Below, piece after piece: positions 1,469-54,381 of a stretch of 64,000 nucleotides of DNA. The stretch lies in NCBI GenBank assembly GCA_965222115.1, contig CBDCTJ010000007.1, positions 1,932,082 to 1,996,081 on the forward strand, in the 5' to 3' direction. The notes beneath the pieces are model-generated. The model searched no databases. It was given only the letters and a program-made list of their open reading frames with translations, and was not told the origin of the DNA. Made by a program: the position numbers and the translations under genes. Source of the stretch: Planctomycetota bacterium. Its GTDB lineage: Bacteria > Planctomycetota > PLA2 > JAEUHO01. The first letter of the stretch is position 1; the number at the start of each line of letters is the position of its first letter.

Positions 1469-3562
1469 GTGAGGGTCGTCATGAAGTTTTCTCAGCTCAA
1501 AACCGCTCGATCCGGCACGGATGCGGTACGTCGTGTTCTTTGTGCCGCAACGCTCGCTTTGTTGAGCGTCATTGCGTTTTCTCCGACCACCAGCTTTGCT
1601 GGCGACGGTTCATTGGATCCCGATGCCTACCGCACGCGCGATGTGGGCTCCGGCAAGGTAACCATCGACGTGGATGACCAAGCCTTTGGTCAAGTTGTGC
1701 GCGAGCTCATCTCGCCAGCGACGTCCATGAACATCGTGGTTAGCGCGGCGGCAGAGTCCGAACCCGTCACGTTGCAGGTCCAAGACCTGCATTGGGTTCA
1801 CGCACTCAGCGCGCTCGCCAACAAGATTGGTGGCGTGATCATCGAAGAGGCGGACAATCTCATCAAGATTGAGCGCCCCGAGCCCGTCACGTTTAGTTAC
1901 ACCGACACCGACATTCGTGAAGTGATCGGTTCATTCGGCGATTACGCGGGCGCCAACATCATCGTAAGCCCCAAGGTAAGCGGCAATGTCACCGTCACGC
2001 TCAAGAACGTGCCTTGGCGACATGCGCTTGAGCAAATCGTGCGAACCGTTGGGCCCTATGCCGTGGTCGAAGAGAAGTTCGGCATGCTGCGTGTCGTGCC
2101 GCGAGATGAGCTTGAGCTCACGATGGCCTACCACCGCTTCAAGTTCATTCGTCCACCCGCACCCTATCGCGGTGTGATCGCCGGACAGGGCGGCGGCAGT
2201 GGCGGCGGCAGTGGCGGCGGAAGCGAGACACAGGCCACCGACGCCATCATTTTGGGCAAGCCCAATATTCCTTCCGACGACTACACCACCATCGAGGAGA
2301 CGTTCCCAATTCTCGGCGCACTCAAGCAGATCGTGACCGCGGATGGAGAAGGTGGAAACGTCAAGTATATCCCCTCTCAAAATACGATCGTCTTCACGGG
2401 TACAGCTCCGCGGATCCGCGAAGTGAAGGCCATGCTCAAGCAGCTCGACGTCGAGCCGCCGCAGGTTTTCATTGAGATGAATTTCATCGTGACCAGCAAC
2501 TCGGACGCGATCAACTTGGGCCTGGACGCGGGTGACGCCTCGGGCCTCAACATCGGCATGAGCGGTTCCGACATCATTCACGCCCTGCCCTTCAATACGG
2601 GCGGCGGCGATGGCCTAGCCAAGGCACTAACAGGAACTGCCTTCCCCGCTCCTGCGGCAAGTGCCTTCGGTCACGGTACACTCACCTTTGGTGAAACGCA
2701 GCTCCTCTGGAAATTCCTCCAGCGGGACTCGCGCAGCCGGATCGTTCAAGCTCCGAAGCTCTTGGCCCTGGACAATCAGGAATCCACGATCTTCATTGGC
2801 GAGTCGATCCGATACGCCCGTACGACAGCGGCAACCAACCAGAACGGCGGACTCACGTTCTCCGTAGAAGAAGATCCCAACAGTCCTGTGAGCGTTGGGT
2901 TCCAGCTCCTGGTGATTCCGCACATCATTCCGGGCGAACAGAAGATTCGCATGCTGGTTATTCCCCAGCGCCGCGCCCTTACGGGTACGGGGCCTTTGCC
3001 GGGGTTTGATCGCATCACGGTTTCCGGGCAGAGCATTGATCTGCCGCGTGTTCAGTCGAGTTCGTTGGTTACACACATGATTGTGCGCGATCGTGAGACG
3101 GCCGTCATCGGTGGCCTCATGGAAGAACGCGAAGTTGAACGCGCGGATAAGTGGCCCTTCTTTGGGGATCTCCCCATCATCGGGGCCGCCTTCCAAGGCA
3201 AGGAAAAGTCCATGGTTCGTGAGCACCTCCTCATCACCATCACTCCGCGCATTGTGCGCGGTACCGATGCGGTGAATGCGCGGGTGTCCGACGAACTGGC
3301 CAATCGACCTTATGAGTTGGCCGCCGAGTACGACAGCCTCTATAGCGGATGCGGTACACCCATGTACGGCACGCCTATGGGCGGCGGCGCGGCGACCTAT
3401 AGCACCGAAGTTCCCGGCACCCCGTCAGGTGGTGTCATCATTAAAAACTCCGGTGCTCCCGAAGTTGCTCCCGCCGACGTGGGCACACCTCCGAGCGAAA
3501 TGACCGCTCCCGGGGATGCCCCGCCCGCCGGCGAGCCGATTCCTGTAGCCCCTGGAAGGTAG
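1469..3562 (+). CDS. pilQ: Secretin (PilQ/GspD family) outer-membrane channel
   Basis: N-terminal signal peptide and N0/N1-like domains (VTLKNVPWRHALEQIVRTVGPYAVV). The C-terminal secretin core (NQESTIFIGESIRY..., VIGGLMEEREVERADKWPFFGDLPIIGAAFQGKEKSMVREHLLITITPRIV) is classic. A (GGGS)3 linker is encoded by a 12-bp tandem repeat at about 2189-2224. Confidence 0.85.
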   Translation: MRVVMKFSQLKTARSGTDAVRRVLCAATLALLSVIAFSPTTSFAGDGSLDPDAYRTRDVGSGKVTIDVDDQAFGQVVRELISPATSMNIVVSAAAESEPVTLQVQDLHWVHALSALANKIGGVIIEEADNLIKIERPEPVTFSYTDTDIREVIGSFGDYAGANIIVSPKVSGNVTVTLKNVPWRHALEQIVRTVGPYAVVEEKFGMLRVVPRDELELTMAYHRFKFIRPPAPYRGVIAGQGGGSGGGSGGGSETQATDAIILGKPNIPSDDYTTIEETFPILGALKQIVTADGEGGNVKYIPSQNTIVFTGTAPRIREVKAMLKQLDVEPPQVFIEMNFIVTSNSDAINLGLDAGDASGLNIGMSGSDIIHALPFNTGGGDGLAKALTGTAFPAPAASAFGHGTLTFGETQLLWKFLQRDSRSRIVQAPKLLALDNQESTIFIGESIRYARTTAATNQNGGLTFSVEEDPNSPVSVGFQLLVIPHIIPGEQKIRMLVIPQRRALTGTGPLPGFDRITVSGQSIDLPRVQSSSLVTHMIVRDRETAVIGGLMEEREVERADKWPFFGDLPIIGAAFQGKEKSMVREHLLITITPRIVRGTDAVNARVSDELANRPYELAAEYDSLYSGCGTPMYGTPMGGGAATYSTEVPGTPSGGVIIKNSGAPEVAPADVGTPPSEMTAPGDAPPAGEPIPVAPGR
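2189..2224 (+). repeat. 12-bp tandem repeat (GGCGGCGGCAGT x3) encoding the (GGGS)3 linker inside the secretin gene
   Basis: Direct read: ggcggcggcagt ggcggcggcagt ggcggcggaagc, in frame. Confidence 0.8.
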
Positions 3563-3709
3563 TCAAGCTCTGCTCTGGACCTTTACGTCAGTTTCGGTCC
3601 CGAGTTCCTTCATTACCTATAGCTGATCGTCGATCTGCTTGCGTTCCCACGTATCCGTGGTGCGAGCGTTCGAAGTTGGTTTTGGTGACGAAGTCGATGG
3701 AGCCTTCCA

Positions 3710-6673
3710 TTGGCCTCCGAGAGCAGCAACAGTCCACGCCGTCGACGCGCTCGAAATGGGCGTCGAGGGCGCACGCGGCACACAGATTCTTCCACCACAA
3801 GTGAGCCCGACGCACCAGCGCCGACGCCCGCGCCACCTCCGAAGTCCAGGCCGGCCAGGGGCAATCGAGCGTCTCGCACCCGAGGCGCTCCGGTTCCGCT
3901 GCATGACGCACCCGACGCACCGCCGCGCCTTTCAAATCGGGGCTCAAACCGCGCCAACGGGGAACGCAGTCCACGTCGAAGGGCTCGGCCCACATCACGT
4001 CGGCAGACCACGCGTCGAGCCGCAGAGCCATCCGAGCCAAAGGCGAAGCGCCCGCATCGTGTACGGAAGCGTGCTGTGGTCCGTCGTCGCGTCAAAGCCG
4101 AGCCCGACGTGGTTCCCTCGCGCGACGCGCCCATGCCCCCGACACGCGAAAAGCCCTCACGCCGACGTGAGTCGCGACGTTCCGGGCGCGGAGAACGCGG
4201 TTCGCTCAAGAAGGCACGAAACAAACGATCGCGAACCGATGACAGTCGTGAGCCAACCACCAGCAAGCGCAGTGGATCCCGAAAGAAGAAGAAGGGGGAC
4301 AGTCGGCGCACGCGCGGCGGCCGCGAAGGGCGTGCGCGCGACGCGCGTCGTACAAGTGATCGACGACGCGAGGGCGCACGCGGTCGCGATCGCCATCGAC
4401 GTCGCGACGCCTTTGATGGCAAGGCCATCGACATTGTGCCGCGCGCACCGAGTCCTGAGGACCAGCAACTGGAAAAAGTCTTGTTGGTCAATGCCGCAGA
4501 CCGTGAAGAGGCTCGTATTGCCCTCGTAGTGGGCGGGCGTCTTGAAGAGATCTACGTTGAATCCACACGCGATCGATCCACGGCGGGCCACATTTATCGT
4601 GGGCGCATTCAAAACGTGGAAAAGGGTATCGGCGCAGCATTTGTGGATCTTGGACGCGGCGTAACGGGCTTTCTACACGTGTCGGATATGCCGGTCATTC
4701 GCGACGACGACACAGGCGCCACCACGAAAGACAACTCGCAGGGCACCACAGACAGCGACGCGCAAGAAGCCAACCCGACCGAGCAAGATGCACCGTCTCG
4801 CTCCGAGGCTAACGAGCCACCCGAGCCGTCCGAACCTCTCGCGCTACACGAGCCACTTAGGGCGGGCGATGAGGTCATTGTTCAGATCACGCGGGATGGC
4901 ATCGGTCGCAAAGGGCCTGCGCTTACCGGGCGCATCTCTCTGCCGGGTCGCTATCTCGTCTTGCTTCCCTACGCCGGTCGTTCCGGTATTTCGCGCCGTA
5001 TTCCCCAAGGTCGTGAACGGCAACGCATGCGCAAGCTGTTGCGCAAACTTGATGTGCCGGGAGGCATGGGCGTGATTGTGCGCACCGCAAGCGAATCCAC
5101 CGACCTCGCCGCATTGCAGGCCGACTTGGCGCACTTGGTGGACGAGTGGTCGCGGATTCAAGAACGTGCGGCCGAGCCCGGTCCACCCGGCGTGTTGCGT
5201 GCGGAAAGCAATCTTGCCGAGCGCAGCGTGCGCGACATTATGCCGAGTGACGTGACGCGCATTGTTGTGGACCGCGGCGAAACCGCTGGCCAAATGCATC
5301 GATTATTGCGCACGTGGTACCCGTCGGCCGCCGCGGCGGCGGAAGAGGTGTCAAAGGTCGCTGCGCGCACCGTGTCCGCTTCGGCATTTACACCGCTCGG
5401 TGAGCTATCACCCACCGGCGAAGCCCTGGCGACCTCCGTGGGTGCTGCGCCCGATGCCACCGAAGACGAAACGCTGAGCGAAGTCGAAGGAGAGTGGGAG
5501 GAGGAATCGCATCCAGGTGCGAATGGGCTCGAGCCCATCGAGTTGAAAGACGACGAGCGTGTTGCGGATGAATGGGACGACTCCGAACTCGTGGATGACG
5601 ACGACGATCATCATGAAGATCTCGACGACGATGACGACGAGGATCACGATGTCGATGAGTACGACGAAGATGTCGATGACGACGAAGACGAAGAAGACCT
5701 GGAAGATGATGACGACGACGACCACGACCATGAAGACGAAGACGATCACGTAGCTGAGTCCGAAGAGTCGCCCTCGCTACAATCCGCTCCCGACGGTGAA
5801 GTTGAAGACGAAGAACTTGAGGACGCAGTCCAAATCGATGTCGAGTCTGAGGTCGCGTCCAATGAAGAGGATGAGGAGGATCCGGCCGCCCGCATTGAAC
5901 GCCTTCGCGCATTGGCCCGTTCCATGCCCGACGTTGAGATCCACACCGATCCCATGCCGCTGTTCCATGCCTACAACATCGAGACGCAGTTGGAAGAGGC
6001 CTTCCGTCGCACGGTGCGTCTGCCGTCGGGCGGTTCGCTCGTCTTTGATCCCACCGAGGCGCTCTTTGCCATCGACGTCAACAGCGGTCGTCTGACCGAC
6101 GCTGAAGATCCCGAACGCACCGCGCTCGTTACAAACTTGGAGGCCGTGGCCGAGGTCGCGCGTCAGCTTCGTTTGCGAGACCGCGGGGGGCTTGTGGTGA
6201 TCGACTTTATCGACATGCGCATGCGCAGTTCGCGTCGAAAGGTCGAAGTTGCGCTGCGTGAAGCCCTTTCGAAAGACCGCGCGCGCATTCGCTTGGGTCG
6301 CATGGGCCCCTTCGGCTTAGTGATTTTGTCTCGTCAGCGCATTCGCCAAGCGCTTTCCCGCGTCACGCACACATCGTGTACCGCGTGTCATGGCACCGGT
6401 CGCCGGCGTCATGTATCCGGGCTGGGCTTGCGGATTCTGCGCGAAATGGAAGCGCGTGTGGCACGGGCCCGCGGTCGGGGCGGTCTCGAAGTGCGGGCAC
6501 CGCAGGAAGTCTTGCAATGGCTCAAGAAGCATCGCGCGGGAGCGCTGCGTGCGTTGCGGGCCGAGGCGCGAGGGCCTCTTGAACTTGTGTCGGATAGCCG
6601 ATTGGCCGTGGATGGTTGGGCCATGAAGGGCATTGCCAACACCGAGCCGTCGGGAAAGCCTGACAAAACGTAG
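3710..6673 (+). CDS. rne: Ribonuclease E/G family endoribonuclease with Arg-rich N-terminal tail and internal polyacidic insert
   Basis: S1 domain (HIYRGRIQNVEKGIGAAFVDLGRGVTGFLHVSDM). DNase I-like catalytic subdomain (LVFDPTEALFAIDVNSGR...LVVIDFIDMRMR). Zn-link CTACHGTGRRRHVSG. The first about 250 aa are R/S/P-rich. An about 110-aa D/E/H-rich insert lies between the two catalytic halves. Confidence 0.85.
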   Translation: MASESSNSPRRRRARNGRRGRTRHTDSSTTSEPDAPAPTPAPPPKSRPARGNRASRTRGAPVPLHDAPDAPPRLSNRGSNRANGERSPRRRARPTSRRQTTRRAAEPSEPKAKRPHRVRKRAVVRRRVKAEPDVVPSRDAPMPPTREKPSRRRESRRSGRGERGSLKKARNKRSRTDDSREPTTSKRSGSRKKKKGDSRRTRGGREGRARDARRTSDRRREGARGRDRHRRRDAFDGKAIDIVPRAPSPEDQQLEKVLLVNAADREEARIALVVGGRLEEIYVESTRDRSTAGHIYRGRIQNVEKGIGAAFVDLGRGVTGFLHVSDMPVIRDDDTGATTKDNSQGTTDSDAQEANPTEQDAPSRSEANEPPEPSEPLALHEPLRAGDEVIVQITRDGIGRKGPALTGRISLPGRYLVLLPYAGRSGISRRIPQGRERQRMRKLLRKLDVPGGMGVIVRTASESTDLAALQADLAHLVDEWSRIQERAAEPGPPGVLRAESNLAERSVRDIMPSDVTRIVVDRGETAGQMHRLLRTWYPSAAAAAEEVSKVAARTVSASAFTPLGELSPTGEALATSVGAAPDATEDETLSEVEGEWEEESHPGANGLEPIELKDDERVADEWDDSELVDDDDDHHEDLDDDDDEDHDVDEYDEDVDDDEDEEDLEDDDDDDHDHEDEDDHVAESEESPSLQSAPDGEVEDEELEDAVQIDVESEVASNEEDEEDPAARIERLRALARSMPDVEIHTDPMPLFHAYNIETQLEEAFRRTVRLPSGGSLVFDPTEALFAIDVNSGRLTDAEDPERTALVTNLEAVAEVARQLRLRDRGGLVVIDFIDMRMRSSRRKVEVALREALSKDRARIRLGRMGPFGLVILSRQRIRQALSRVTHTSCTACHGTGRRRHVSGLGLRILREMEARVARARGRGGLEVRAPQEVLQWLKKHRAGALRALRAEARGPLELVSDSRLAVDGWAMKGIANTEPSGKPDKT

Positions 6674-6868
6674 CATTTGGCCCACCCGCCCCCGTGGATC
6701 GGGTGGGTTTCGTTTCTGCCCTTCATTGCGGAGGGCCCGCGGGGCCGCTATGGTCTCGGCCCGTATCTCATGAGTCGCGCGTGCGAAGCTCAGGCGTCGT
6801 GTATGTGCCCTCCGCGTGGCCCGCCCACGAGCAAATCCAGTTTGACCTGTTCCGTAGGAATCCGTCCC

Positions 6869-7177
6869 ATGTATGCGATCGTGAATGACCGAGGCAAGCA
6901 GTACATGGTCCACGAAGGCGATCGCCTTTGGATCGATCGTATTGATGCTGAACCCGGTTCCAGCATTTCCTTTGACCAGGTCATGGTGGTAGGCGGCGAT
7001 AGCGGCGTGCGCGTGGGTCGGCCCACCGTGGACGGCGCGTCCGTCAGTGCGACCGTGGTCGCCGAGCGCAAAGATAAGAAGATTGTCGTCTTCAAGAAGA
7101 AGCGCCGCAAGATGTACCGCCGCAAGCAGGGCCATCGTCAACGATATACAGAAATCGAAGTCGGAACCATCGCGTAG
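6869..7177 (+). CDS. rplU: 50S ribosomal protein L21
   Basis: MYAIVNDRGKQYMVHEGDRLWIDRI...KIVVFKKKRRKMYRRKQGHRQ is a typical L21 sequence. It is an internal ATG of the longer six-frame ORF 6677..7177. Confidence 0.93.
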   Translation: MYAIVNDRGKQYMVHEGDRLWIDRIDAEPGSSISFDQVMVVGGDSGVRVGRPTVDGASVSATVVAERKDKKIVVFKKKRRKMYRRKQGHRQRYTEIEVGTIA

Positions 7178-7250
7178 CCCGGACTCGAACCATTGAGATC
7201 GATGTTCACGAGGCCCACGATTTCCAAGGGGCCCAACAGGAGTACCAGTT

Positions 7251-7496
7251 ATGGCGCATAAGAAGGGTCAAGGTTCGTGTCGCAACGGACGCGACAGCAA
7301 TGCCAAGTCCCGCGGCATCAAGAAGTACGCCGGGGAAACGGTTCGTGCAGGCAATATCTTGGTTCGGCAAGTTGGATCGCGTTTCAAGCCCGGCCACGGT
7401 GTGGGCATGGGCAACGACTATACGCTTTTTGCGCTGCGTGACGGTGTTGTTGAATACCAAACCAACAAGCGCGTTCATATTCGCGAGCTGAGTTAG
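7251..7496 (+). CDS. rpmA: 50S ribosomal protein L27
   Basis: [29 protein letters not shown]...; conserved rplU-rpmA-obg order; RBS-like AGGAG 9 nt upstream. Confidence 0.95.
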
Positions 7497-7523
7497 CCGC
7501 GTCCGTCGATCGACGCGGTTCAT
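7497..7523 (+). terminator. Hairpin just after rpmA (possible attenuator/terminator)
   Basis: CCGCGTC-cgtcgatc-GACGCGG (7-bp perfect stem) followed by TTCAT. No strong U-tract. Confidence 0.25.
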
Positions 7524-7580
7524 AGGCCGTGCGCGTGCGAATCCTCGGTGCGACACACGGTGTTCTTGTAGGCTTGTTTC

Positions 7581-8609
7581 TTGTTTATTGACGAACGACG
7601 CATCCGTGTGCGCTCTGGGAATGGCGGCCACGGCATTGTGGCTTGGCGAAGAGAACGCCGCGTGCCGCGTGGGGGACCCGCCGGTGGCGATGGGGGGCGT
7701 GGGGGCGACGTTGTGCTCGTTGCCGACGTACAGATGACGACCTTTGCCGACATGCAGGACGTGCGTGTGGTCAAGGCGGGAAACGGTGAATCGGGAAGCG
7801 GTAACAAGTGCCACGGGGCCGGTGCAGACGACACCATTCTTCGCGTCCCCGTGGGCACCACGGTTTACGTGGAACCCTCCGGCAACAAACTCGTGGACTT
7901 TGTCGAGGACGGCCAGACGTACGTCGTAGCTCGTGGCGGGCGCGGAGGTCGCGGAAATGCGCGCTTTGCAACAGCGACAGATCAAGCGCCCACGCACCAC
8001 ACGAAGGGTCGACCCGGTCGTGAGCGTACGCTACGACTGGAACTGCGGCTCCTCGCCGACGTGGGATTGGTCGGACTGCCCAACGCGGGCAAGAGCACCT
8101 TGCTTTCGCGCGTGTCGGCGGCCACGCCGCGGGTGGCCGACTATCCGTTTACGACGCTCGTTCCCCATCTCGGCATTGTGGAGATCGACCGCACGCGTTT
8201 TGTGATGGCCGATCTTCCGGGGTTGATTGAAGGCGCCCATGCGGGCAGCGGGTTGGGCGACCGATTTCTGCGGCACATTGAACGCACCCGCGTGCTTCTA
8301 CACCTCGTGGATCCCCTGCCCGGCGATGGATCGAATCCGATTGAGAACTATTTGGCGATTCGAGGCGAACTCTTGGCTTACGACCCCGCGCTCGCGGAGC
8401 GCCCGGAGATCCTCGTGGCCACCAAAATGGACCTCTACCCCGAAATCGTCGCGGGTGGCGGGAAGGGCGATGATCCGATCACGGAGACCTTGAGGGAACT
8501 GGCGGCGCGTGCCGATAGGAGGGTGTTTCCTATTTCGGCCGCGTCTGGAATTGGCGTTCGCGGAATGCTCCGCGAAGTCGCCAAGGTGCTCGCGGCGACA
8601 CGGGAATAG
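7581..8609 (+). CDS. obg: GTPase Obg/CgtA
   Basis: Glycine-rich Obg fold (RVRSGNGGHGIVAWRRERRVPRGGPAGGDGGRGGDV) and G domain (GLVGLPNAGKSTLLS). TTG start in the ORF track. Confidence 0.93.
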   Translation: MFIDERRIRVRSGNGGHGIVAWRRERRVPRGGPAGGDGGRGGDVVLVADVQMTTFADMQDVRVVKAGNGESGSGNKCHGAGADDTILRVPVGTTVYVEPSGNKLVDFVEDGQTYVVARGGRGGRGNARFATATDQAPTHHTKGRPGRERTLRLELRLLADVGLVGLPNAGKSTLLSRVSAATPRVADYPFTTLVPHLGIVEIDRTRFVMADLPGLIEGAHAGSGLGDRFLRHIERTRVLLHLVDPLPGDGSNPIENYLAIRGELLAYDPALAERPEILVATKMDLYPEIVAGGGKGDDPITETLRELAARADRRVFPISAASGIGVRGMLREVAKVLAATRE

Positions 8610-8636: not shown

Positions 8637-9911
8637 GTGGATTCGACGGGCGACCTCCAATTTTTGCACGTTTCGGGGCCCACCATGCTCGACGAGATCT
8701 TGATCCACTTCAAAGTGATGGTGAAAGAACGCGCGTCCGACCTATTCCTGCGCGCGGGGTACCGTCCCGCGTCGCGCATCGACGGCGTGATTCGGTTTCT
8801 CTCCGATCAGATTGTGACCGAGGAACAGGCCGACGCGTTGCTCAATCACATTCTTGCGCCCAAGGACGTGGATGACTTCGAGCGGAGGAAGGAAAAGGAC
8901 ACCGCGTTCGTGGTGCCCGGCGTGGGTCGCTTCCGTTGCAACATTCTCCGTCAGCGTCAGCGCCTCGCATTCGTCTTTCGCCACGTGCAGGAATCTATTC
9001 CGCCCATGGAGGCCTTGCACCTTCCGGTAAAGCCCATTCAGTCGCTCGCCATGAAAGAACGTGGTCTCATCTTGGTCACCGGCACAACGGGTTCCGGTAA
9101 ATCCACCACGCTCGCGTCGATGATCGACTACATGAATCAGCGCGTGGCACGCCACATTGTGACCGTTGAAGATCCGATGGAGTTTGTGTTCCACGACAAC
9201 AAATGCGCCATCATGCAACGTGAAGTGGGCATCGATACGCTCGATTACCCCTCGGCACTCAAGGGTGTTGTGCGTCAGAGCCCCGACGTGATTCTGATTG
9301 GTGAAATGCGCGATGCCGAGACGGTGTCGGCGGCGCTGAGCGCTGCGGAAACAGGTCATTTGGTCATGTCCACCTTGCACACCATCAATGCGGTGCAGAC
9401 CGTTGAACGTATCATTAGCTTCTTCCCGCCCCATCAACACGACACGATTCGCTTGCAGCTCTCCATGACGTTGCAGGGGGTCGTCAGCCAACGTCTACTC
9501 ACGCGTCGCGCTGCGCCGGGTCGTGTACCTGCGATTGAAATCTTGTTGGGTACGCCCACGGTGCGTGAAATGGTGCTAGAGGGGCGCACCCTTGAGTTGG
9601 CCGATGCACTGGAAGAGGGTCACAAGTATTACGGCAGCCAGAGCTTCAATCAGAGCTTGGTGGCGCTGCTTCGCGAAGGCGTGATTGACATTGACGACGC
9701 TATGGCCGCGGCCGACAGCCCCGACGAACTCAACCTCGTTCTGCGCGGCATCTCCAAGGGAACGAGCAATCTCGACGCCACGCCCACGAGCGGCGCCAAA
9801 CCCGCCGAAGGCGAGTCGAAAATCCGCCACGGGTTTGAGGGTGCGACGAAGACGCCGGCCGCTTCGGGCAGCCGTTCGAGTTCAAAGTCGGGCACCTGGG
9901 GATCCTCGTAA
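8637..9911 (+). CDS. pilT: Type IV pilus retraction ATPase PilT/PilU family, with about 70-aa low-complexity C-terminal extension
   Basis: Walker A GTTGSGKSTTLASMIDYMN; PilT signature HLVMSTLHT; conserved EDPMEF and ILIGEMRD motifs. The likely true start is the internal ATG at 8685 (MLDEILIHF...ASDLFL). Confidence 0.85.
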   Translation: MDSTGDLQFLHVSGPTMLDEILIHFKVMVKERASDLFLRAGYRPASRIDGVIRFLSDQIVTEEQADALLNHILAPKDVDDFERRKEKDTAFVVPGVGRFRCNILRQRQRLAFVFRHVQESIPPMEALHLPVKPIQSLAMKERGLILVTGTTGSGKSTTLASMIDYMNQRVARHIVTVEDPMEFVFHDNKCAIMQREVGIDTLDYPSALKGVVRQSPDVILIGEMRDAETVSAALSAAETGHLVMSTLHTINAVQTVERIISFFPPHQHDTIRLQLSMTLQGVVSQRLLTRRAAPGRVPAIEILLGTPTVREMVLEGRTLELADALEEGHKYYGSQSFNQSLVALLREGVIDIDDAMAAADSPDELNLVLRGISKGTSNLDATPTSGAKPAEGESKIRHGFEGATKTPAASGSRSSSKSGTWGSS

Positions 9912-10158: not shown

Positions 10159-11499
10159 ATGAGCAAAGCAATCAAGCCCCACACCATGCGACGTGGATTT
10201 TGGTTACTCAACCTCGCACTCATTGCTGGCGTGGGGTACCTCGGCTATCAGTTCTTCACCAAGACGCGACCGGCTGTTGCCAGTGTGATCAACCGCAAGT
10301 CAAAGAAGTTGCCCAAGCCGTATCAGAAGCAGGTCAACGCCTATGCGCGTGCCTCCAAGAGTCTCGACTGGAAGCCGCGTCCACCGGTTATGAATGCTGA
10401 ACTCGAAAAAGTCATTCTTCGCAAGGACTATGAAGAGCGCAATCACTGGATCTTTTCCGGTCCGATGCCTCCGAAGGACAAGCCTGAAGTCATATCGGAT
10501 CCTGTGAAGCCGAAAGGCCCAAGGGGCCTCGCCGCAATCGGTCGCGTTGTGATGGCGACCTACATTCCCGGCAATCACTCGATCGTTTTCAGGTTTGGCA
10601 AAGGTGGTCCGCCCGCCGCAACAAAGTCAGCGCCGGGCAAGGCGCCGAAAGCGCCTCCCGGCAACACCGGCACGTTTACGCAGGGTGAGTTCATTCGCGA
10701 AACTCCGGAAGCCGCAAAGCGCTTCAAGTTTATCGACCTTGTGCGTGTCAACGACAAGCTCGGCGTGTTCAACGTCGTGTACGACGTGCATGACACATCC
10801 AGTGGCGAACGCGTCGAAGAGCGCAAGATGTACCTCTATGACACCAACCCACCGGATGATGACAGCGGTATTATTGTTTTCGCCGGCGACGCAGCAAAGC
10901 GTGCTGCCGCAAAGGTGGCGGCTGAAGGCCAGAATGGTGAGGGCACGGCCGGGGAGGGCGGCACGGGAGAGGCAGGCGAGGGCGAAACTACCGAAGCCGT
11001 TAGCGAAACGCCTACGGATGTCGGCACGACGAAACCCGTTGAGAGCGACACCTATGTTGTGGCCGATTTGCGGCCACAGGATCTGCGACCCAAGCGTCAC
11101 AATCTCGTGGGCGGGCGCAAGGGCATTGCCTTTGACAAGCGCACCTTCGACTATTTCCGCGGCAAGAATGCCAAGAAGGTCGCCGAGTCCATCAAGACCG
11201 AAATTGCACGGGATCCCAAGACGGGTACCACGTTGGGTTTGCGGTTTACGGGCTTCGGCAAAGACTCTCCCGCCGATGTATTCGATGTTAAGCGCGGCGA
11301 CATCTTAGTGTCGATCAATGGCCAGCGCGTGGCCAGCCGGGCCGACGTTATGGGCCTCATTGATCGCCTCAAGAACGCAAAGACTGTTGAAGTCGTACTC
11401 GACCGACTTGGCAAAAGAGTCACCTACATGGTTGACCCCAGCGATCCCCGCACCCGCCGCGAAGCGCGCTATTTGACTCAATTTGCGGAGCAAGAGTAG
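10159..11499 (+). CDS. Bitopic membrane protein with C-terminal PDZ domain, GspC/PilP-like
   Basis: Short basic N-terminus and one TM (FWLLNLALIAGVGYLGYQFF). Low-complexity A/G/E-rich linker. C-terminal PDZ (GLRFTGFGKDSPADVFDVKRGDILVSINGQRVASRADVMGLIDRL). RBS AGGAG upstream. Confidence 0.5.
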   Translation: MSKAIKPHTMRRGFWLLNLALIAGVGYLGYQFFTKTRPAVASVINRKSKKLPKPYQKQVNAYARASKSLDWKPRPPVMNAELEKVILRKDYEERNHWIFSGPMPPKDKPEVISDPVKPKGPRGLAAIGRVVMATYIPGNHSIVFRFGKGGPPAATKSAPGKAPKAPPGNTGTFTQGEFIRETPEAAKRFKFIDLVRVNDKLGVFNVVYDVHDTSSGERVEERKMYLYDTNPPDDDSGIIVFAGDAAKRAAAKVAAEGQNGEGTAGEGGTGEAGEGETTEAVSETPTDVGTTKPVESDTYVVADLRPQDLRPKRHNLVGGRKGIAFDKRTFDYFRGKNAKKVAESIKTEIARDPKTGTTLGLRFTGFGKDSPADVFDVKRGDILVSINGQRVASRADVMGLIDRLKNAKTVEVVLDRLGKRVTYMVDPSDPRTRREARYLTQFAEQE

Positions 11500-52191: not shown

Positions 52192-52463
52192 GTGGGGCTC
52201 TTGTGGAGTCGTTCCGTGTTGTCTGCGAGAGGGCGACGCTCATCTCACGCAGAGGCGCAAAGGACGCGGGGGCGCAGAGGGCGGCCTGTTTAGGAGCGCG
52301 GCCTTGCGGAAGTGGGCACTGCTTGGTGGGGGAGGGGACTTGAAGAAAAAGCTCACACGAAGAGCGCCAAGGAACGAAGCGCAGGCGTGGCGGAGCAGTG
52401 TTCGAGAATGTGGAGGAGTGTCTGGTGGCGGGACGGTTTTTTGGAGAAGAAGGCTCTGTCGCG

Positions 52464-54381
52464 GTAGGGACTCCGGTTTCCCGGAGCCCCCCGCACAGAT
52501 CCCGGCGTGCGGATTTCCCGCACCGGGCTCCTGCCTTAGGTAATGACGCGCAAGTTCATGTAGGGACGTTTGTGACGGATGCGAAGGCTTGGGAAGTAGC
52601 GTTTTTCCAAGGCATACATGCGACACCAGGAACACCGTGAGCGTTGGCTACGCCGCCGTAGGTGGTTGCGCCAGATGCGCAGGAGCCGCCTCCGAAAGAG
52701 CTGGAGCGCTGTGCCGTTATCGGGGATGGCATGATAGTTCAGCCAGCCCCGCATAACAGACGCGAGCCATTTAGCCACACGTACGGGTTTCCAGTGGAGT
52801 CGTTTTCGGAGCGCATCACGGATGGCTCGTAGCGTGGCTACCAGTCGATCCGCACGCGTTCTGCGTACAACCTTGAAACGGCCTTTCCGGGTAGTTGCGC
52901 ATATGTGCGTAAAGCCCAGAAACTTGAATGTGGGCGGCTTCCCTTCACCGCGTTCCGCTCGGTTTACCGCTGCAAAGCGGCCAAACTCAATCAGACGCGT
53001 CTTGTCGGGATGCAGTTCCAGCTTGAACGTGTTGAGGCGTTCGCGAAGTTCCCGTAGGAATCGCTCAGCCTCGTTCTTGTACTTGAATCCCACCACAAAG
53101 TCGTCAGCGTAGCGCACGATGATGATGTCACCGCGCGCATGGCGCCGCCGCCACTGGTGGGCCCACAGATCAAAGGCGTAGTGCAGGTACACGTTGGCAA
53201 GCAGCGGACTAATGCCGCCCCCTTGCGGGGTGCCTGCCTTCGTCGGCCTGCGCACGCCATCTTCCATAACGCCCGCGTGCAACCACTTCTTGATAAAGCG
53301 ATGCACACGTTTGTCCGCAATCCGGTGCGAGATGAACTTCATTAGCCACTCATGGTCGATGGCATCGAAAAACCCACGAATGTCTGCATCAAGCACCCAG
53401 TTCACCTTCTTGCGCTCGATTCCCACGCATAGGGCGTCCAGCGCGTTGTGCTGGCTGCGCCCGGGGCGGAAGCCGTAGCTGAACCCGAGAAATTCCTCCT
53501 CGTACACCGTGCCAATCACCTCCGAAGCTGCGCGTTGGACCACGCGGTCCTCAATCGCAGGCACACCGAGTGGACGCTGCCGTCCATCGGCCTTCGGGAT
53601 GTACACACGTCGCACCGGAGGCGCTCGGTACGCGCCGCGCTTGAGGCGATCGGACAAGTCCACGAGATTATTCTCAAGGTTCTTGCCGTAGGCCTCCCAC
53701 GTAACCCCATCAACGCCGGCTGCGCCTTTGCGCTTGAGGCTGAAGTACGCCTCTCGAAGTCGGTCCACGGAGTACACGTGGTGCCAGAGCGTGGTGAACT
53801 TCTCATCTTTTCGTTCCACAGCAACTTGCCGTACCCGATCCATCTTCTGGTTCAGAACATTCCGTATCTGCGCACGGGTTCTGCTTCGTCGGATCGAGTT
53901 CCCCTTGGCCAAACCCCTTCCCTTCACGTCCTCCGCAGACCGGGACGCATCCCGACCCTTGTTCGGTCGCTTCTTCGGTACTACGGGTTTGTCCGACTGC
54001 CTGCGTTCGTTCATCGTCGGCGTGACCTCATTGAGGTTCCCGACGCGGACCCGTTGCCAAAGGCGGGCCAAACGTAGGCTCTCTCAGGTTCCGTATGGAA
54101 ATCTATTGGGGCATGCACCGGGTCTAAGACCGCGCAGGAGCAACTGGACGCTCGCCAAGGACGCACCCAGCCGTGTTGCCTTCTCACGTTGGTGATCGTG
54201 TCGGCCTCCTGGAATTTCATCGTGGTTTCGCGGCTCAATACCGGGCCTACCTCCCCTCTGTCTACGCTTCGCAGCGCGCCCTTACGAGCGCCCACGCAAG
54301 ACACGAGGCCGGCGTGAGTGGCTAGCTCTTCGCCGTAAGACTCTTTCATTCTCTGATCTCCATCGGCTTATCCTGACGCAC
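52464..54381 (-). mobile_element. Group II intron (bacterial, ORF in domain IV), approximate boundaries
   Basis: RT/maturase ORF. Domain V candidate at 52497-52530 (RNA GAGCCCGGUGCGGGAAAUCCGCACGCCGGG: AGC triad, GAAA tetraloop, 2-nt bulge). A following GAAA hairpin ending ...UAC is a domain VI candidate. GUGCG at 54381-54377 (minus sense) as a 5' end candidate gives about 1.9 kb total. Confidence 0.6.
52536..54071 (-). CDS. Group II intron-encoded reverse transcriptase/maturase
   Basis: RT motifs GFRPGRSQHNALDAL, DADIRGFFDAIDH, TPQGGGISPLLANVYL, YADDFVV. Maturase X-domain RGWLNYHAI. The functional start is probably an internal Met near 53843, with the upstream open frame running through domains I-IVa. 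Confidence 0.88.
   Translation of the reverse strand: MARLWQRVRVGNLNEVTPTMNERRQSDKPVVPKKRPNKGRDASRSAEDVKGRGLAKGNSIRRSRTRAQIRNVLNQKMDRVRQVAVERKDEKFTTLWHHVYSVDRLREAYFSLKRKGAAGVDGVTWEAYGKNLENNLVDLSDRLKRGAYRAPPVRRVYIPKADGRQRPLGVPAIEDRVVQRAASEVIGTVYEEEFLGFSYGFRPGRSQHNALDALCVGIERKKVNWVLDADIRGFFDAIDHEWLMKFISHRIADKRVHRFIKKWLHAGVMEDGVRRPTKAGTPQGGGISPLLANVYLHYAFDLWAHQWRRRHARGDIIIVRYADDFVVGFKYKNEAERFLRELRERLNTFKLELHPDKTRLIEFGRFAAVNRAERGEGKPPTFKFLGFTHICATTRKGRFKVVRRTRADRLVATLRAIRDALRKRLHWKPVRVAKWLASVMRGWLNYHAIPDNGTALQLFRRRLLRIWRNHLRRRSQRSRCSWCRMYALEKRYFPSLRIRHKRPYMNLRVIT

Follow-up and report, generated by a model that had tools for sequence, protein, structure and literature searches.

In many bacteria, mRNA decay is governed globally by RNase E, whose disordered regions are the model on which the understanding of degradosome scaffolding and RNA-decay condensates in bacteria is based. 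Such knowledge comes almost entirely from enzymes with a C-terminal tail. The E. coli enzyme (PDB 2BX2, 2VRT, and 6G63) is built from an RNase H-like subdomain, S1, 5′ sensor, DNase I-like subdomain, Zn-link, and small domain, followed by a C-terminal scaffold of about 530 aa, and duplex RNA is bound on a surface made up of its RNase H and small domains (PMC6202311). In Caulobacter, the C-terminal domain is disordered and bears Arg-rich patches and blocks of opposite charge, which alternate in units of 10-30 residues within the one tail and drive the assembly of BR-bodies (bioRxiv 10.1101/272286). The alpha-proteobacterial (Caulobacter, PDB 4OXP) and plant enzymes also have a charged, mostly disordered insertion of variable length in the S1 domain, described as the one point at which the catalytic domain deviates significantly; RNA mimicry was proposed for the acidic side chains of the Caulobacter insert (PMC4245959). 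N-terminal noncatalytic regions have already been described for RNase E of Actinobacteria and plant plastids (bioRxiv 10.64898/2025.12.24.696391; PMC8682795). The actinobacterial enzymes (Mycobacterium; Streptomyces RNase ES) have a large Arg-rich and acidic disordered region at the N terminus as well as a disordered region at the C terminus, and the mycobacterial N-terminal regions have a role in RNA binding and mRNA decay (bioRxiv 10.64898/2025.12.24.696391). An N-terminal disordered tail is thus not new in itself, being known in other phyla, as are S1 insertions.

Identity and catalytic core of a Planctomycetota RNase E

An open reading frame at 3710..6673 (+ strand, as for all features below; stop codon included) was analyzed in its 64-kb window, the whole stretch of DNA that was under study, and encodes a protein of 987 aa from a TTG start codon. 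Judged by its sequence, it is a real gene for an Rne/Rng-family ribonuclease, as the earlier note had claimed: the protein matches the Pfam models RNase_E_G (PF10150; E-value 1.8e-83, 280.5 bits versus a cut-off of 25.5), S1, and RNase_E_G_Thio (PF20833), and scores above the cut-off of TIGR00757 (417.6 versus 325.95 bits). It scored below the cut-offs of the equivalog models for proteobacterial RNase E (NF008074; 321 versus 908 bits), RNase G (NF008689; 290 versus 594 bits), and actinobacterial/mycobacterial RNase E (NF052588; 207 versus 1400 bits). Assignment to these types was rejected on architecture as well, as (i) RNase G is a compact form of about 490 aa, versus 987 aa with three extra disordered regions here; (ii) the long C-terminal scaffold of the proteobacterial type is absent; and (iii) of the disordered regions of the actinobacterial type, the N-terminal one is present and the C-terminal one is not.

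Residue-level alignment to E. coli RNase E (Ec; PDB 2vrt) recovered the same order of domains. Residues 256-326 (4475..4687), covering the opening portion of the RNase H-like subdomain together with the first half of S1, align with Ec 2-72; residues 380-524 (4847..5281), with the remainder of S1, the 5′ sensor, and a portion of the RNase H-like subdomain, align with Ec 91-235; and residues 740-953 align with Ec 254-466, within a segment (residues 740-987; 5927..6670) that encodes the end of the RNase H-like subdomain, the DNase I-like catalytic subdomain, the Zn-link, and the small domain. Retained in this alignment were (i) the Mg-binding aspartates D789 (Ec D303; codon at nt 6074-6076) and D832 (Ec D346; nt 6203-6205); (ii) the S1 residues F311, F321, and K401 (Ec F57, F67, and K112); (iii) the 5′-monophosphate sensor residues V417 (Ec V128) and R458/T459 (Ec R169/T170); and (iv) the Zn-link cysteines C890/C893 (Ec C404/C407; nt 6377-6388), whose motif reads CTACHGTG (CxxCxGxG) and not CPxCxGxG as first noted. 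The key catalytic, sensor, S1, and Zn-link residues were invariant in a 40-sequence alignment of the clade, and an AF2 model of the protein matched 2bx2 and 6g63 (E about 1e-36, TM 0.65-0.66). By this sequence evidence, the CxxC Zn-link and the small (thioredoxin-like) domain for tetramer assembly are present. The gene lies in an rne-rplU-rpmA-obg cluster, a housekeeping context in which the downstream genes occupy 6863..8609 (rplU, 6863-7177; rpmA, 7251-7496; obg, 7581-8609). We regard the identity and architecture of this RNase E as close to certain, and the protein is the intact, and probably active, housekeeping enzyme of this Planctomycetota bacterium. The differences from E. coli lie outside the aligned blocks: the C-terminal scaffold is lacking, with about 34 residues beyond the small domain in the alignment to the E. 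coli reference, an N-terminal tail of 255 aa is added, and 53 and 215 aa stand at the S1 site and at Ec 236-253, respectively, where E. coli has 18 at each.

Charged disordered regions ahead of and within the catalytic domain

The N-terminal extension (residues 1-255; 3710..4474) is polycationic, with 26% Arg, 32% Arg plus Lys, a net charge of +51, and eight positive charge blocks. No secondary structure was predicted for it, and pLDDT was below 50 over residues 1-243 of the AF2 model; the original description of an Arg-rich disordered region at the N terminus and none at the C terminus is borne out. Comparison with relatives revealed no significant sequence similarity in the tail beyond the motif AIDIVPRAP (residues 239-247; 4424..4450), which marks the boundary of tail and core and is conserved in the closest subclade (P0002-P0027). 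The tails of relatives are typically 160-300 aa with the same layout, a short acidic or neutral lead and then an R patch, and a motif recurrent in them, AGAFLDPPP, is not clearly present in the 987-aa protein. The start codon of rne is uncertain, and the first 122 residues of the tail hinge on the TTG, which has a GGAG 7 nt on its 5′ side. The public gene call (P0001) begins at residue 123 (GTG at 4076) to give 865 aa, and codon-position GC did not discriminate coding from noncoding sequence for residues 1-122; the shortest plausible start, an ATG at residue 142, still leaves an Arg-rich tail of at least 114 aa. An extension at the N terminus only was found in 72 of 260 sampled RNase E/G relatives. 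Long open reading frames are also present in other frames across this region.

The insertion at the classical S1 site (residues 327-379; 4688..4846), unmentioned in the earlier note, is 53 aa long with a net charge of −10, compared with 18 aa in E. coli and 10-19 aa in the closest relatives. It includes a 9-nt repeat (4813-4856) encoding EPPEPSEP, and pLDDT was below 50 over residues 335-365. This insertion is of the known S1-insertion type (charged, disordered, about 50-150 aa, Ec 72-91). Since the closest relatives are without an S1 insert, it was gained independently, and its likeness to the alpha-proteobacterial and plant type is architectural only.

The largest insertion (residues 525-739; 5282..5926) is 215 aa long, has 40% Asp plus Glu, and carries a net charge of −76. 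It had been placed between the S1/5′-sensor half and the DNase I half of the protein; it does immediately precede the DNase I subdomain, but it interrupts the RNase H-like subdomain, in that subdomain's second half (Ec 236-253). In the AF2 model, confident helices at residues 523-560 and 725-736 enclose a loop, residues 575-718 (5432..5863), with pLDDT below 50, in agreement with the claim that the catalytic domain is split by a disordered polyacidic segment. The outgoing helix (residues 538-560; 5321..5389; pLDDT about 90) has a flank, WYPSAAAAAEE..VR, that is conserved in the closest subclade, as is the pattern ERLxRLxxxAR in the return helix (residues 725-736, ARIERLRALAR; 5882..5917; pLDDT about 88). 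The insertion is thus modeled as a two-helix stalk that bears a polyanionic loop, disordered and about 145 aa long, and the view that the low-complexity regions are not alignable applies to the loop but not to its flanks, which are alignable, predicted to be helical, and conserved. Near-pure Asp/Glu had been estimated at about 110 residues with regularly spaced His. The tract is in fact 52 aa (residues 629-680; 5594..5749; 79% Asp/Glu) inside a 143-aa region of 56% Asp/Glu, and its six His (residues 634, 635, 646, 672, 674, and 680) are irregularly spaced. All of the His codons are CAY (CAC/CAT) and are interleaved with Asp codons of the type GAY (GAC/GAT), one nucleotide step away. The tract is a degenerate GAY/GAR codon repeat with a period of 3, 9, or 27 nt, in which synonymous codons are mixed and exact DNA repeats reach 14 nt at most. 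Among 116 long stop-to-stop open reading frames of the window, both the most acidic 40-aa stretch (82.5% Asp/Glu) and the most basic one (50% Arg/Lys) lie in rne, so these charge extremes are outliers and not the result of a genome-wide composition bias. The main insert differs from that of the alpha-proteobacterial and plant enzymes in its location, at a second site, in the conserved helical stalk that it possesses, and in its far greater acidity. The disordered regions resemble the Caulobacter BR-body scaffold in their blocks of opposite charge and Arg-rich patches, but the charge blocks, though strong, lie in two distant regions, the N-terminal tail (+51) and the internal loop (−76), rather than alternating in one tail.

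Distribution and divergence of the insertion

The site in the RNase H-like subdomain was found to carry an insert of 20-229 aa in all 58 close Planctomycetota relatives (P0002-P0059), a clade of five clusters at 50% identity among 5532 RNase E/G representatives (E up to 1e-30). Elsewhere, the same site spans 17 aa in P0060-P0120, and of 142 other representatives, 138 have 16-19 aa there. Our literature search returned no description of an insertion at this site. Alignment with related enzymes, suggested in the earlier note as a check, thus shows the insert to be lineage-wide, and orthologs share both unusual features; the contrary case given there, orthologs devoid of the two and a tract produced by misassembly, does not hold. 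Within the clade, the Asp plus Glu content of the inserts ranges from 5% to 40%, and some members have 20-40 aa with almost no net charge. In the closest subclade, the helical flanks are conserved and the acidic loop between them is hypervariable. The 52-aa tract of near-pure Asp/Glu with His is specific to the present genome, whose layout is the most extreme among the relatives compared. Very probably, then, the insert is a lineage-wide feature with a species-specific extreme tract. Its length and sequence drift fast by in-frame gain and loss of codon repeats and by GAY to CAY (Asp to His) changes: in a pair of proteins that are 98.6% identical (P0005 and P0264), the 12 differences comprise 8 in the insert, 4 in the N-terminal tail, and none in the core, and the sole indel, which lies in the acidic tract, is one DDA unit of 3 aa.

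The sign of the charge is preserved at each location in the clade: when the tail is at least 90 aa long (n = 36), its net charge is positive in 29 of 36 proteins and that of the loop is negative in 35 of 36. Tail and insert are not obligatorily coupled, however, as a tail-less subclade (P0043-P0059) retains the insert. RNase E proteins of other Planctomycetota clades (such as P0071, P0114, and L023) resemble the present one: they have a tail at the N terminus, lack the C-terminal scaffold, and contain a disordered internal insert that is acidic and often rich in His; theirs is at the S1 site, the RNase H-like site being of the canonical 17 aa, and core identity is about 40-48%. In the sample, 91 of the 132 proteins that lack a C-terminal tail had an internal insert of at least 40 aa, compared with 4 of the 112 that have one; though the sample is biased, this suggests that the disordered module was relocated rather than lost. 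This Planctomycetota lineage shows that insertions in the catalytic domain are permitted at a second site beside that of S1, and that charged disordered material can lie ahead of as well as within this domain.

Possible roles of the charged regions

The explanation that we favor, by a modest degree of belief, is a housekeeping RNase E whose disordered parts are split and act by an electrostatic mechanism. The Arg-rich tail would play the part that arginine-rich segments for RNA binding and scaffolding have in other RNase E proteins. In sequence, about 15 residues separate the tether of the polyanionic loop from a segment that contributes to the duplex-RNA surface in E. coli (H268-Q270), and the loop could be a built-in polyanion, either an RNA mimic or a counter-ion, with which RNA would have to compete for the tail and the RNA-binding surfaces, both of them basic. 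Such competition may damp nonspecific RNA capture or aggregation, and the loop could also supply the opposite-charge blocks needed for reversible self-association. The role itself, electrostatic gating or condensate formation, is tentative and falls somewhat short of probable in our analysis. The condensate idea, raised when the gene was first noted, is plausible by analogy to the Caulobacter charge blocks, but the comparative test applied to it, for phylogenetically corrected co-variation of charge, does not support it. Across the clade, the raw charges of tail and insert were correlated (rho −0.36, p 0.03); after phylogenetic contrasts, the co-variation was not significant (r −0.21, p 0.21), and r was −0.06 when the 987-aa protein was omitted. 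A fuller version of the electrostatic mechanism is improbable as a whole. It would have the electrostatic module of the C-terminal tail relocated and split, such that (i) the cationic N-terminal tail captures RNA; (ii) the stalk-mounted anionic RNA-mimic loop in the RNase H-like subdomain, part of the E. coli duplex-RNA surface, gates the substrate; (iii) the loop pairs in trans with tails of other tetramers to give RNA-tunable self-coacervation, a planctomycete counterpart of BR-bodies; and (iv) the scattered His, and the richer Asp/Glu/His inserts of sister clades, provide a pH or metal response.

A rather unlikely alternative is that the tract and much of the tail are near-neutral low-complexity expansions arising by GAY/GAR replication slippage in a permissive loop, where the sole constraint is to stay soluble and not basic and no specific RNA, condensate, or metal role exists. 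The wide ranges of insert length (20 to 229 aa) and Asp plus Glu content (5% to 40%), the confinement of conservation to the flanks, the repeat-unit indel of the 98.6%-identical pair, the degenerate repeat period, the unconserved His one step from Asp codons, the missing charge coupling after phylogenetic correction, and the S1 loop of the same genome, likewise expanded with an EPP/EPS repeat, are all consistent with such drift. Set against it are the location-specific sign of the charge in loop (35 of 36) and tail (29 of 36), which goes beyond mutational bias alone, the conserved two-helix stalk around the loop, and the independent rise of acidic S1-site inserts in other Planctomycetota RNase E clades; in addition, removal of the S1 insert from Arabidopsis RNase E greatly reduced activity, as cited in PMC4245959. 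If access of RNA is gated by the loop, or if loop and tail pair, as the electrostatic mechanism proposes, the enzyme would be a natural and genetically separable system for the tuning of a central ribonuclease by disordered regions of opposite charge; if not, it would be a clean case of runaway codon-repeat expansion tolerated in an essential enzyme.

A docking role, in which short linear motifs of the insertion, its stalk, and/or the N-terminal tail would recruit a helicase, PNPase, or another partner of the degradosome, has a low probability. Partners of an enzyme without a C-terminal scaffold would have to bind elsewhere, and Caulobacter RhlB binds a catalytic-domain fragment that holds the S1 insert (PMC4245959). 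The closest subclade conserves both the stalk helices and AIDIVPRAP at the junction, and AGAFLDPPP recurs in the tails of relatives, yet the acidic loop itself has no conserved motif and AGAFLDPPP cannot be clearly discerned in the 987-aa protein.

Lower still is the probability of a metal-binding module, in which the Asp/Glu/His tract would bind Zn, Ni, or Cu, or hold a Mg/Mn reservoir, and make activity or assembly responsive to metal or pH. Divalent-metal binding had been proposed from the His spacing, and six His do lie in a 52-aa tract of 79% Asp/Glu; moreover, far richer Asp/Glu/His tracts occur in the S1 inserts of Planctomycetota P0071, P0084, and P0114, the S1 insert of L023 reads HHGPHDDHHGHDEHGHHHDEHHDEHEE, and Caulobacter RNase E binds Cu2+ through His sites (PMC12510024). 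The proposal is weakened by the irregular spacing, by orthologous inserts with 0-5% His and no conserved position, by the derivation of every His from a single GAY to CAY change, and by the absence of HxxxH or CxxC-type motifs from the tract; cation binding by polyacidic tracts is nonspecific anyway.

That the acidic tract came from collapse or expansion of a repeat in the assembly, or that the tail is an untranslated 5′ leader, is scarcely credible despite the low complexity of the region, the later public gene call (by 122 codons), the nondiscriminating codon-position GC of residues 1-122, and the long open reading frames in other frames, given that exact repeats of at most 14 nt with mixed synonymous codons allow reads to be placed uniquely, the frame runs on unbroken from the tract to conserved helices and then the DNase I subdomain, an insert occupies the same site in all relatives, even the ATG at residue 142 leaves an Arg-rich tail, the tails of relatives (160-300 aa) share the lead and R-patch layout, and the TTG is preceded by GGAG.

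Conserved core and N-terminal tail of the window RNase E

The ORF at window 3710-6673 (+), which opens with TTG and encodes 987 aa, was confirmed to specify an RNase E/G, as the earlier note had proposed, by a match to Pfam RNase_E_G (E 1.8e-83) together with matches to the S1 and RNase E/G thioredoxin-like small domains. The protein scored 417.6 bits with the Rne/Rng subfamily model TIGR00757, above the curated cut-off of 326, and was far under the equivalog cut-offs of proteobacterial RNase E, RNase G, cyanobacterial RNase E, and mycobacterial RNase E. Residue-level alignment to E. coli RNase E structures (numbering prefixed Ec) identified three colinear core pieces: (i) residues 256-326 (Ec 2-72); (ii) residues 380-524 (Ec 91-235); and (iii) residues 740-953 (Ec 254-466). 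A search of 5.8 billion proteins retrieved 58 close relatives (P0002-P0059) of 58-77% core identity, with all source-named members labelled Planctomycetota or Planctomycetia. In a 40-sequence alignment of this clade, the counterparts of Ec D303 and D346 (D789, D832), Ec R169, T170, and V128 (R458, T459, V417), Ec K112, F57, and F67 (K401, F311, F321), and Ec C404 and C407 (C890, C893) were invariant; the Zn-link around the two Cys, previously given as CPxCxGxG, reads CTACHGTG. An AlphaFold2 model built from the clade alignment matched E. coli RNase E structures by Foldseek (E ~1e-36; target-normalised TM 0.65-0.66). Based on the complete residue conservation, catalysis and 5′-end sensing should be like those of E. 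coli.

The Arg-rich, disordered N-terminal region noted earlier was also upheld, with residues 1-255 composed of 26% Arg (32% R+K; net charge +51) and residues 1-243 predicted by AlphaFold2 to be disordered; the C-terminal extension is essentially nil. Which start codon this gene uses is genuinely uncertain: in the public gene call (P0001, 865 aa, 100% identical), the protein begins at GTG 4076, which corresponds to residue 123 of the ORF. Because TTG 3710 has a GGAG 7 nt upstream and yields a tail of a length typical of relatives (160-300 aa, opening with a short lead and then an Arg patch, as in the TTG version), the deposited annotation may be 122 codons short. Codon-position GC, used to choose the start codon, was not discriminating at ~60% GC. 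Whichever plausible start is used, among them TTG 3710, GTG 4076, and ATG 4133, at least 114 Arg-rich residues are ahead of the core.

Tails of 100-420 aa, with Arg patches and acidic/Ala/Gly spacers between them, were found in most of P0002-P0042, none of which has a C-terminal scaffold, while P0043-P0059 keep the insert described below and have no tail. No significant similarity was detected by BLAST between the window tail and those of its relatives, and acidic residues account for 12% of the former vs 15-24% of most P0003-P0027 tails. A junction motif, RDPRAIDIVPRAP, is conserved and common to the closest subclade (P0002-P0027). Many tails among P0006-P0023 have the motif (E)AGAF(L/E/Y)DPPP after the first Arg patch and before the second; it is a candidate linear motif for partner binding, and no more than a degenerate remnant of it is seen in the window protein (GAPVPLHDAPDAPP, residues ~59-72).

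Insertions at two sites of the catalytic domain

The large insert (residues 525-739) takes the place of Ec 236-253, within the latter half of the RNase H-like subdomain, and is 215 aa vs 18 in E. coli, with 40% D+E and a net charge of −76. Its acidic core is smaller than the ~110 residues of almost pure Asp/Glu first reported: the tract is 52 aa (residues 629-680; 79% D/E) and sits within a 143-aa region of 56% D/E. The same reading had called the insert not alignable, which applies to the loop and not to its flanks. In P0002-P0027 the N-terminal flank AGxIHRLLRVWYPSAAAAA(D/E)E..H..VR....PLGEL and the C-terminal flank ERLxRLxxxARxM are conserved and correspond to predicted helices, and the Ala/Glu/Asp/Pro-rich loop between them is hypervariable. 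AlphaFold2 predicted confident helices at 523-536, 538-560, and 725-736 (pLDDT ~88-94), which we refer to as the stalk, and a disordered loop at 575-718 (pLDDT <50). Within its subclade, the window loop is the longest and most acidic.

An S1-domain insert (residues 327-379), overlooked in the first reading, is 53 aa vs 18 in E. coli (net charge −10) and is predicted by AlphaFold2 to be disordered at residues 335-365. It includes a 9-nt tandem repeat at window 4813-4856 (CGAGCCACC, ~4.9 copies, 62% matches) that encodes EPPEPSEP. This site is 10-19 aa in the closest relatives (P0002-P0042), with the long form restricted to the window protein within its subclade; the repeat is a second species-specific low-complexity expansion within rne.

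Distribution of the insertions among RNase E/G proteins

Lineage-wide occurrence of the large insert was borne out for the relatives compared, as the RNase H-like site contains extra sequence (20-229 aa) in all 58, compared with the canonical 17 aa in every one of the more distant RNase E/G proteins P0060-P0120. When 1.84 billion cluster representatives were searched exhaustively with HMMER, 5532 RNase E/G representatives had E values no higher than 1e-30. The clade made up five of the 50%-identity clusters, after which the score fell from 525 to 372 bits; 138 of 142 further representatives have 16-19 aa at the RNase H-like site. A genome-contig profile search with universal RNase E motifs identified 80 loci, mostly of Gammaproteobacteria, of which only a few distant Planctomycetota loci (L023, L045, L073, and L078) were informative. 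Clade-specific flank patterns, when searched against metagenome contigs, detected only three loci, all weak or partial.

Other Planctomycetota RNase E clades were found to have an N-terminal tail, no C-terminal tail, and an acidic, often His-rich insert at the S1 site. For example, locus L023 (JAPKHC010000009.1, ORF 2312-6181), whose S1 insert includes HHGPHDDHHGHDEHGHHHDEHHDEHEE, and proteins P0071, P0084, P0114, and P0077 have S1-domain inserts that span 200-290 aa and contain dense runs of Asp/Glu/His, together with long N-terminal tails and the canonical 17-aa RNase H-like site. Across 260 RNase E/G proteins (P0002-P0263), a biased and redundant sample, an internal insert of 40 aa or more, at either the S1 or the RNase H-like site, was present in 91 of the 132 proteins that lack a C-terminal tail vs 4 of the 112 that have one, which suggests that disordered material may have been relocated rather than lost.

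Origin and possible roles of the charged regions

When all 116 long stop-to-stop ORFs of the window were compared, the rne ORF was found to contain both extremes among 40-residue stretches, the most acidic one and the most basic one. The enzyme core is free of acid bias, so the charged regions are not a genome-wide composition effect. A halophile-style acidic proteome was ruled out, as neither the enzyme core nor the other window ORFs are acid-biased. A tail of at least 90 aa is present in 36 proteins, of which 29 have a net positive tail and 35 a net negative loop; members of the closest subclade show no exception to either sign. Lengths and sequences drift; the sign of the charge is location-specific. 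Judged from these sequences, rne maintains two oppositely charged disordered regions, for which mutational bias alone is an insufficient explanation.

An electrostatic model of the disordered parts is a possible, though tentative, explanation. The Arg-rich tail would be the counterpart of the arginine-rich RNA-binding/scaffold segments of other RNase E proteins, and the polyanionic loop would serve as an internal polyanion in competition with RNA, both for the tail and for basic surfaces that bind RNA; the loop could also provide opposite-charge blocks for reversible self-association. In E. coli, the duplex-RNA recognition surface is formed by the RNase H-like subdomain and small domain, and includes R3, Q22, H268-Q270, K433, R488, and R490 (PMC6202311). 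In sequence, ~15 residues separate the end of the insert's return helix from the H268-Q270 counterpart that follows. Acidic residues of the Caulobacter S1 insert have been proposed as RNA mimics (PMC4245959), Caulobacter BR-body assembly requires alternating charge blocks (bioRxiv 10.1101/272286), and the disordered N-terminal regions of the mycobacterial enzyme influence RNA binding and decay as well as condensate-like bodies (bioRxiv 10.64898/2025.12.24.696391). The model is weakened by two results: (i) tail and insert charge correlated weakly in the raw data (Spearman rho −0.36, p 0.03), yet charge compensation was not detected by independent contrasts (r −0.21, p 0.21; r −0.06 without the window protein); and (ii) the tail-less subclade P0043-P0059 still has the insert.

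The main rival, near-neutral expansion of a permissive loop, is itself rather doubtful. It accounts for the variability, the failed co-variation test, and a signature of slippage in the tract. The tract DNA is a degenerate GAY/GAR codon repeat (TRF periods of 3, 9, 24, and 27 nt; 63-68% matches). P0005 and P0264 are 98.6% identical and differ at 12 positions: 8 in the insert, among them their sole indel (a DDA unit of the acidic tract), 4 in the N-terminal tail, and 0 in the ~480-residue core. Every tract His in the window is encoded by CAY among GAY Asp codons, and His makes up 0-5% of orthologous inserts with no conserved position. Based on these tract differences, codons, and unconserved His, the poly-Asp/Glu core with its interspersed His is best interpreted as recent, species-specific codon-repeat slippage with single-nucleotide changes, apparently superimposed on an older, conserved insertion of stalk plus acidic loop. 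The most striking element of the protein, this His-containing run, looks like species-specific repeat drift. Near-neutral expansion leaves unexplained, however, why the charge signs are consistent, why the stalk is conserved, and why acidic inserts recur at another site.

Partner docking by the stalk and tail motifs is conceivable because the C-terminal scaffold is absent, and is considered improbable. A dedicated metal-binding role for the tract His is more doubtful still at the RNase H-like site. Caulobacter RNase E binds Cu2+ through His (PMC12510024); however, the six His that the earlier note had described as regularly spaced are irregular (residues 634, 635, 646, 672, 674, and 680), and none is at a position conserved in orthologous inserts. 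The D/E/H-rich S1 inserts of sister clades are the better metal-binding candidates. An assembly or annotation artefact is highly improbable, and collapse or expansion of the tract appears unlikely because synonymous codons are mixed and the longest exact repeat is 14 nt, with the reading frame continuous through the tract into the conserved helices and catalytic subdomain. An exact 51-mer adjoining the tract had no match in metagenome contigs, which thus offered no population variants of tract length.

Relationship to known RNase E architectures

An N-terminal noncatalytic region, as in the window protein, is known for plant plastid RNase E, whereas actinobacterial enzymes have a C-terminal region in addition to the N-terminal one (PMC8682795; bioRxiv 10.64898/2025.12.24.696391). 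Charged disordered S1 insertions of alpha-proteobacteria and plants have been called the sole significant deviation of the catalytic domain (PMC4245959), and a 2011 survey listed Planctomycetes RNase E/G of 509-588 aa with scaffold features absent (PMC3071783). Among the papers searched, none was found to describe the architecture of RNase E in Planctomycetota, and those on RNase E that were examined report no insertion at the RNase H-like site. As far as the compared sequences can tell, the architecture is real and lineage-specific, with an N-terminal tail only, a second insertion site with a predicted helical stalk, and a loop of extreme acidity. For RNase E specialists, this second site and the split-charge layout would be of note.

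Gene neighborhood and other features of the window

The rne gene is in a housekeeping setting, with a secretin gene on one side and rplU-rpmA-obg on the other. Rfam at gathering threshold detected no rne 5′-UTR element and no other RNA close to rne, and a promoter scan found nothing close to the rne start. A weak terminator-like hairpin at window 6691-6707 (5 pairs followed by a T-rich tail), 18 nt past the rne stop codon and ahead of rplU, was not above chance when compared with shuffles. Secretion or pilus genes are on both sides of the rne-rplU-rpmA-obg block: upstream, at window 1469-3562, a secretin (PF00263) whose C-terminal tail is rich in Gly/Thr/Pro, and downstream, at 8637-9911, a T2SSE/PilT-like ATPase (PF00437), followed by a PDZ-domain protein (10159-11499). 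Farther along, Rfam matches identified a group II intron at window 52458-54344 on the minus strand, with domains 1-4 (RF02005, 169 bits) at 54120-54344 and domains 5-6 (RF00029, 44.6 bits) at 52458-52532; these two matches are expected to flank an intron-encoded reverse transcriptase/maturase ORF. Two very long stop-to-stop ORFs were also observed on the plus strand, one of 1234 aa at window ~48487 and one of 1872 aa at window ~36228 that includes a 40-aa stretch with 50% D/E.
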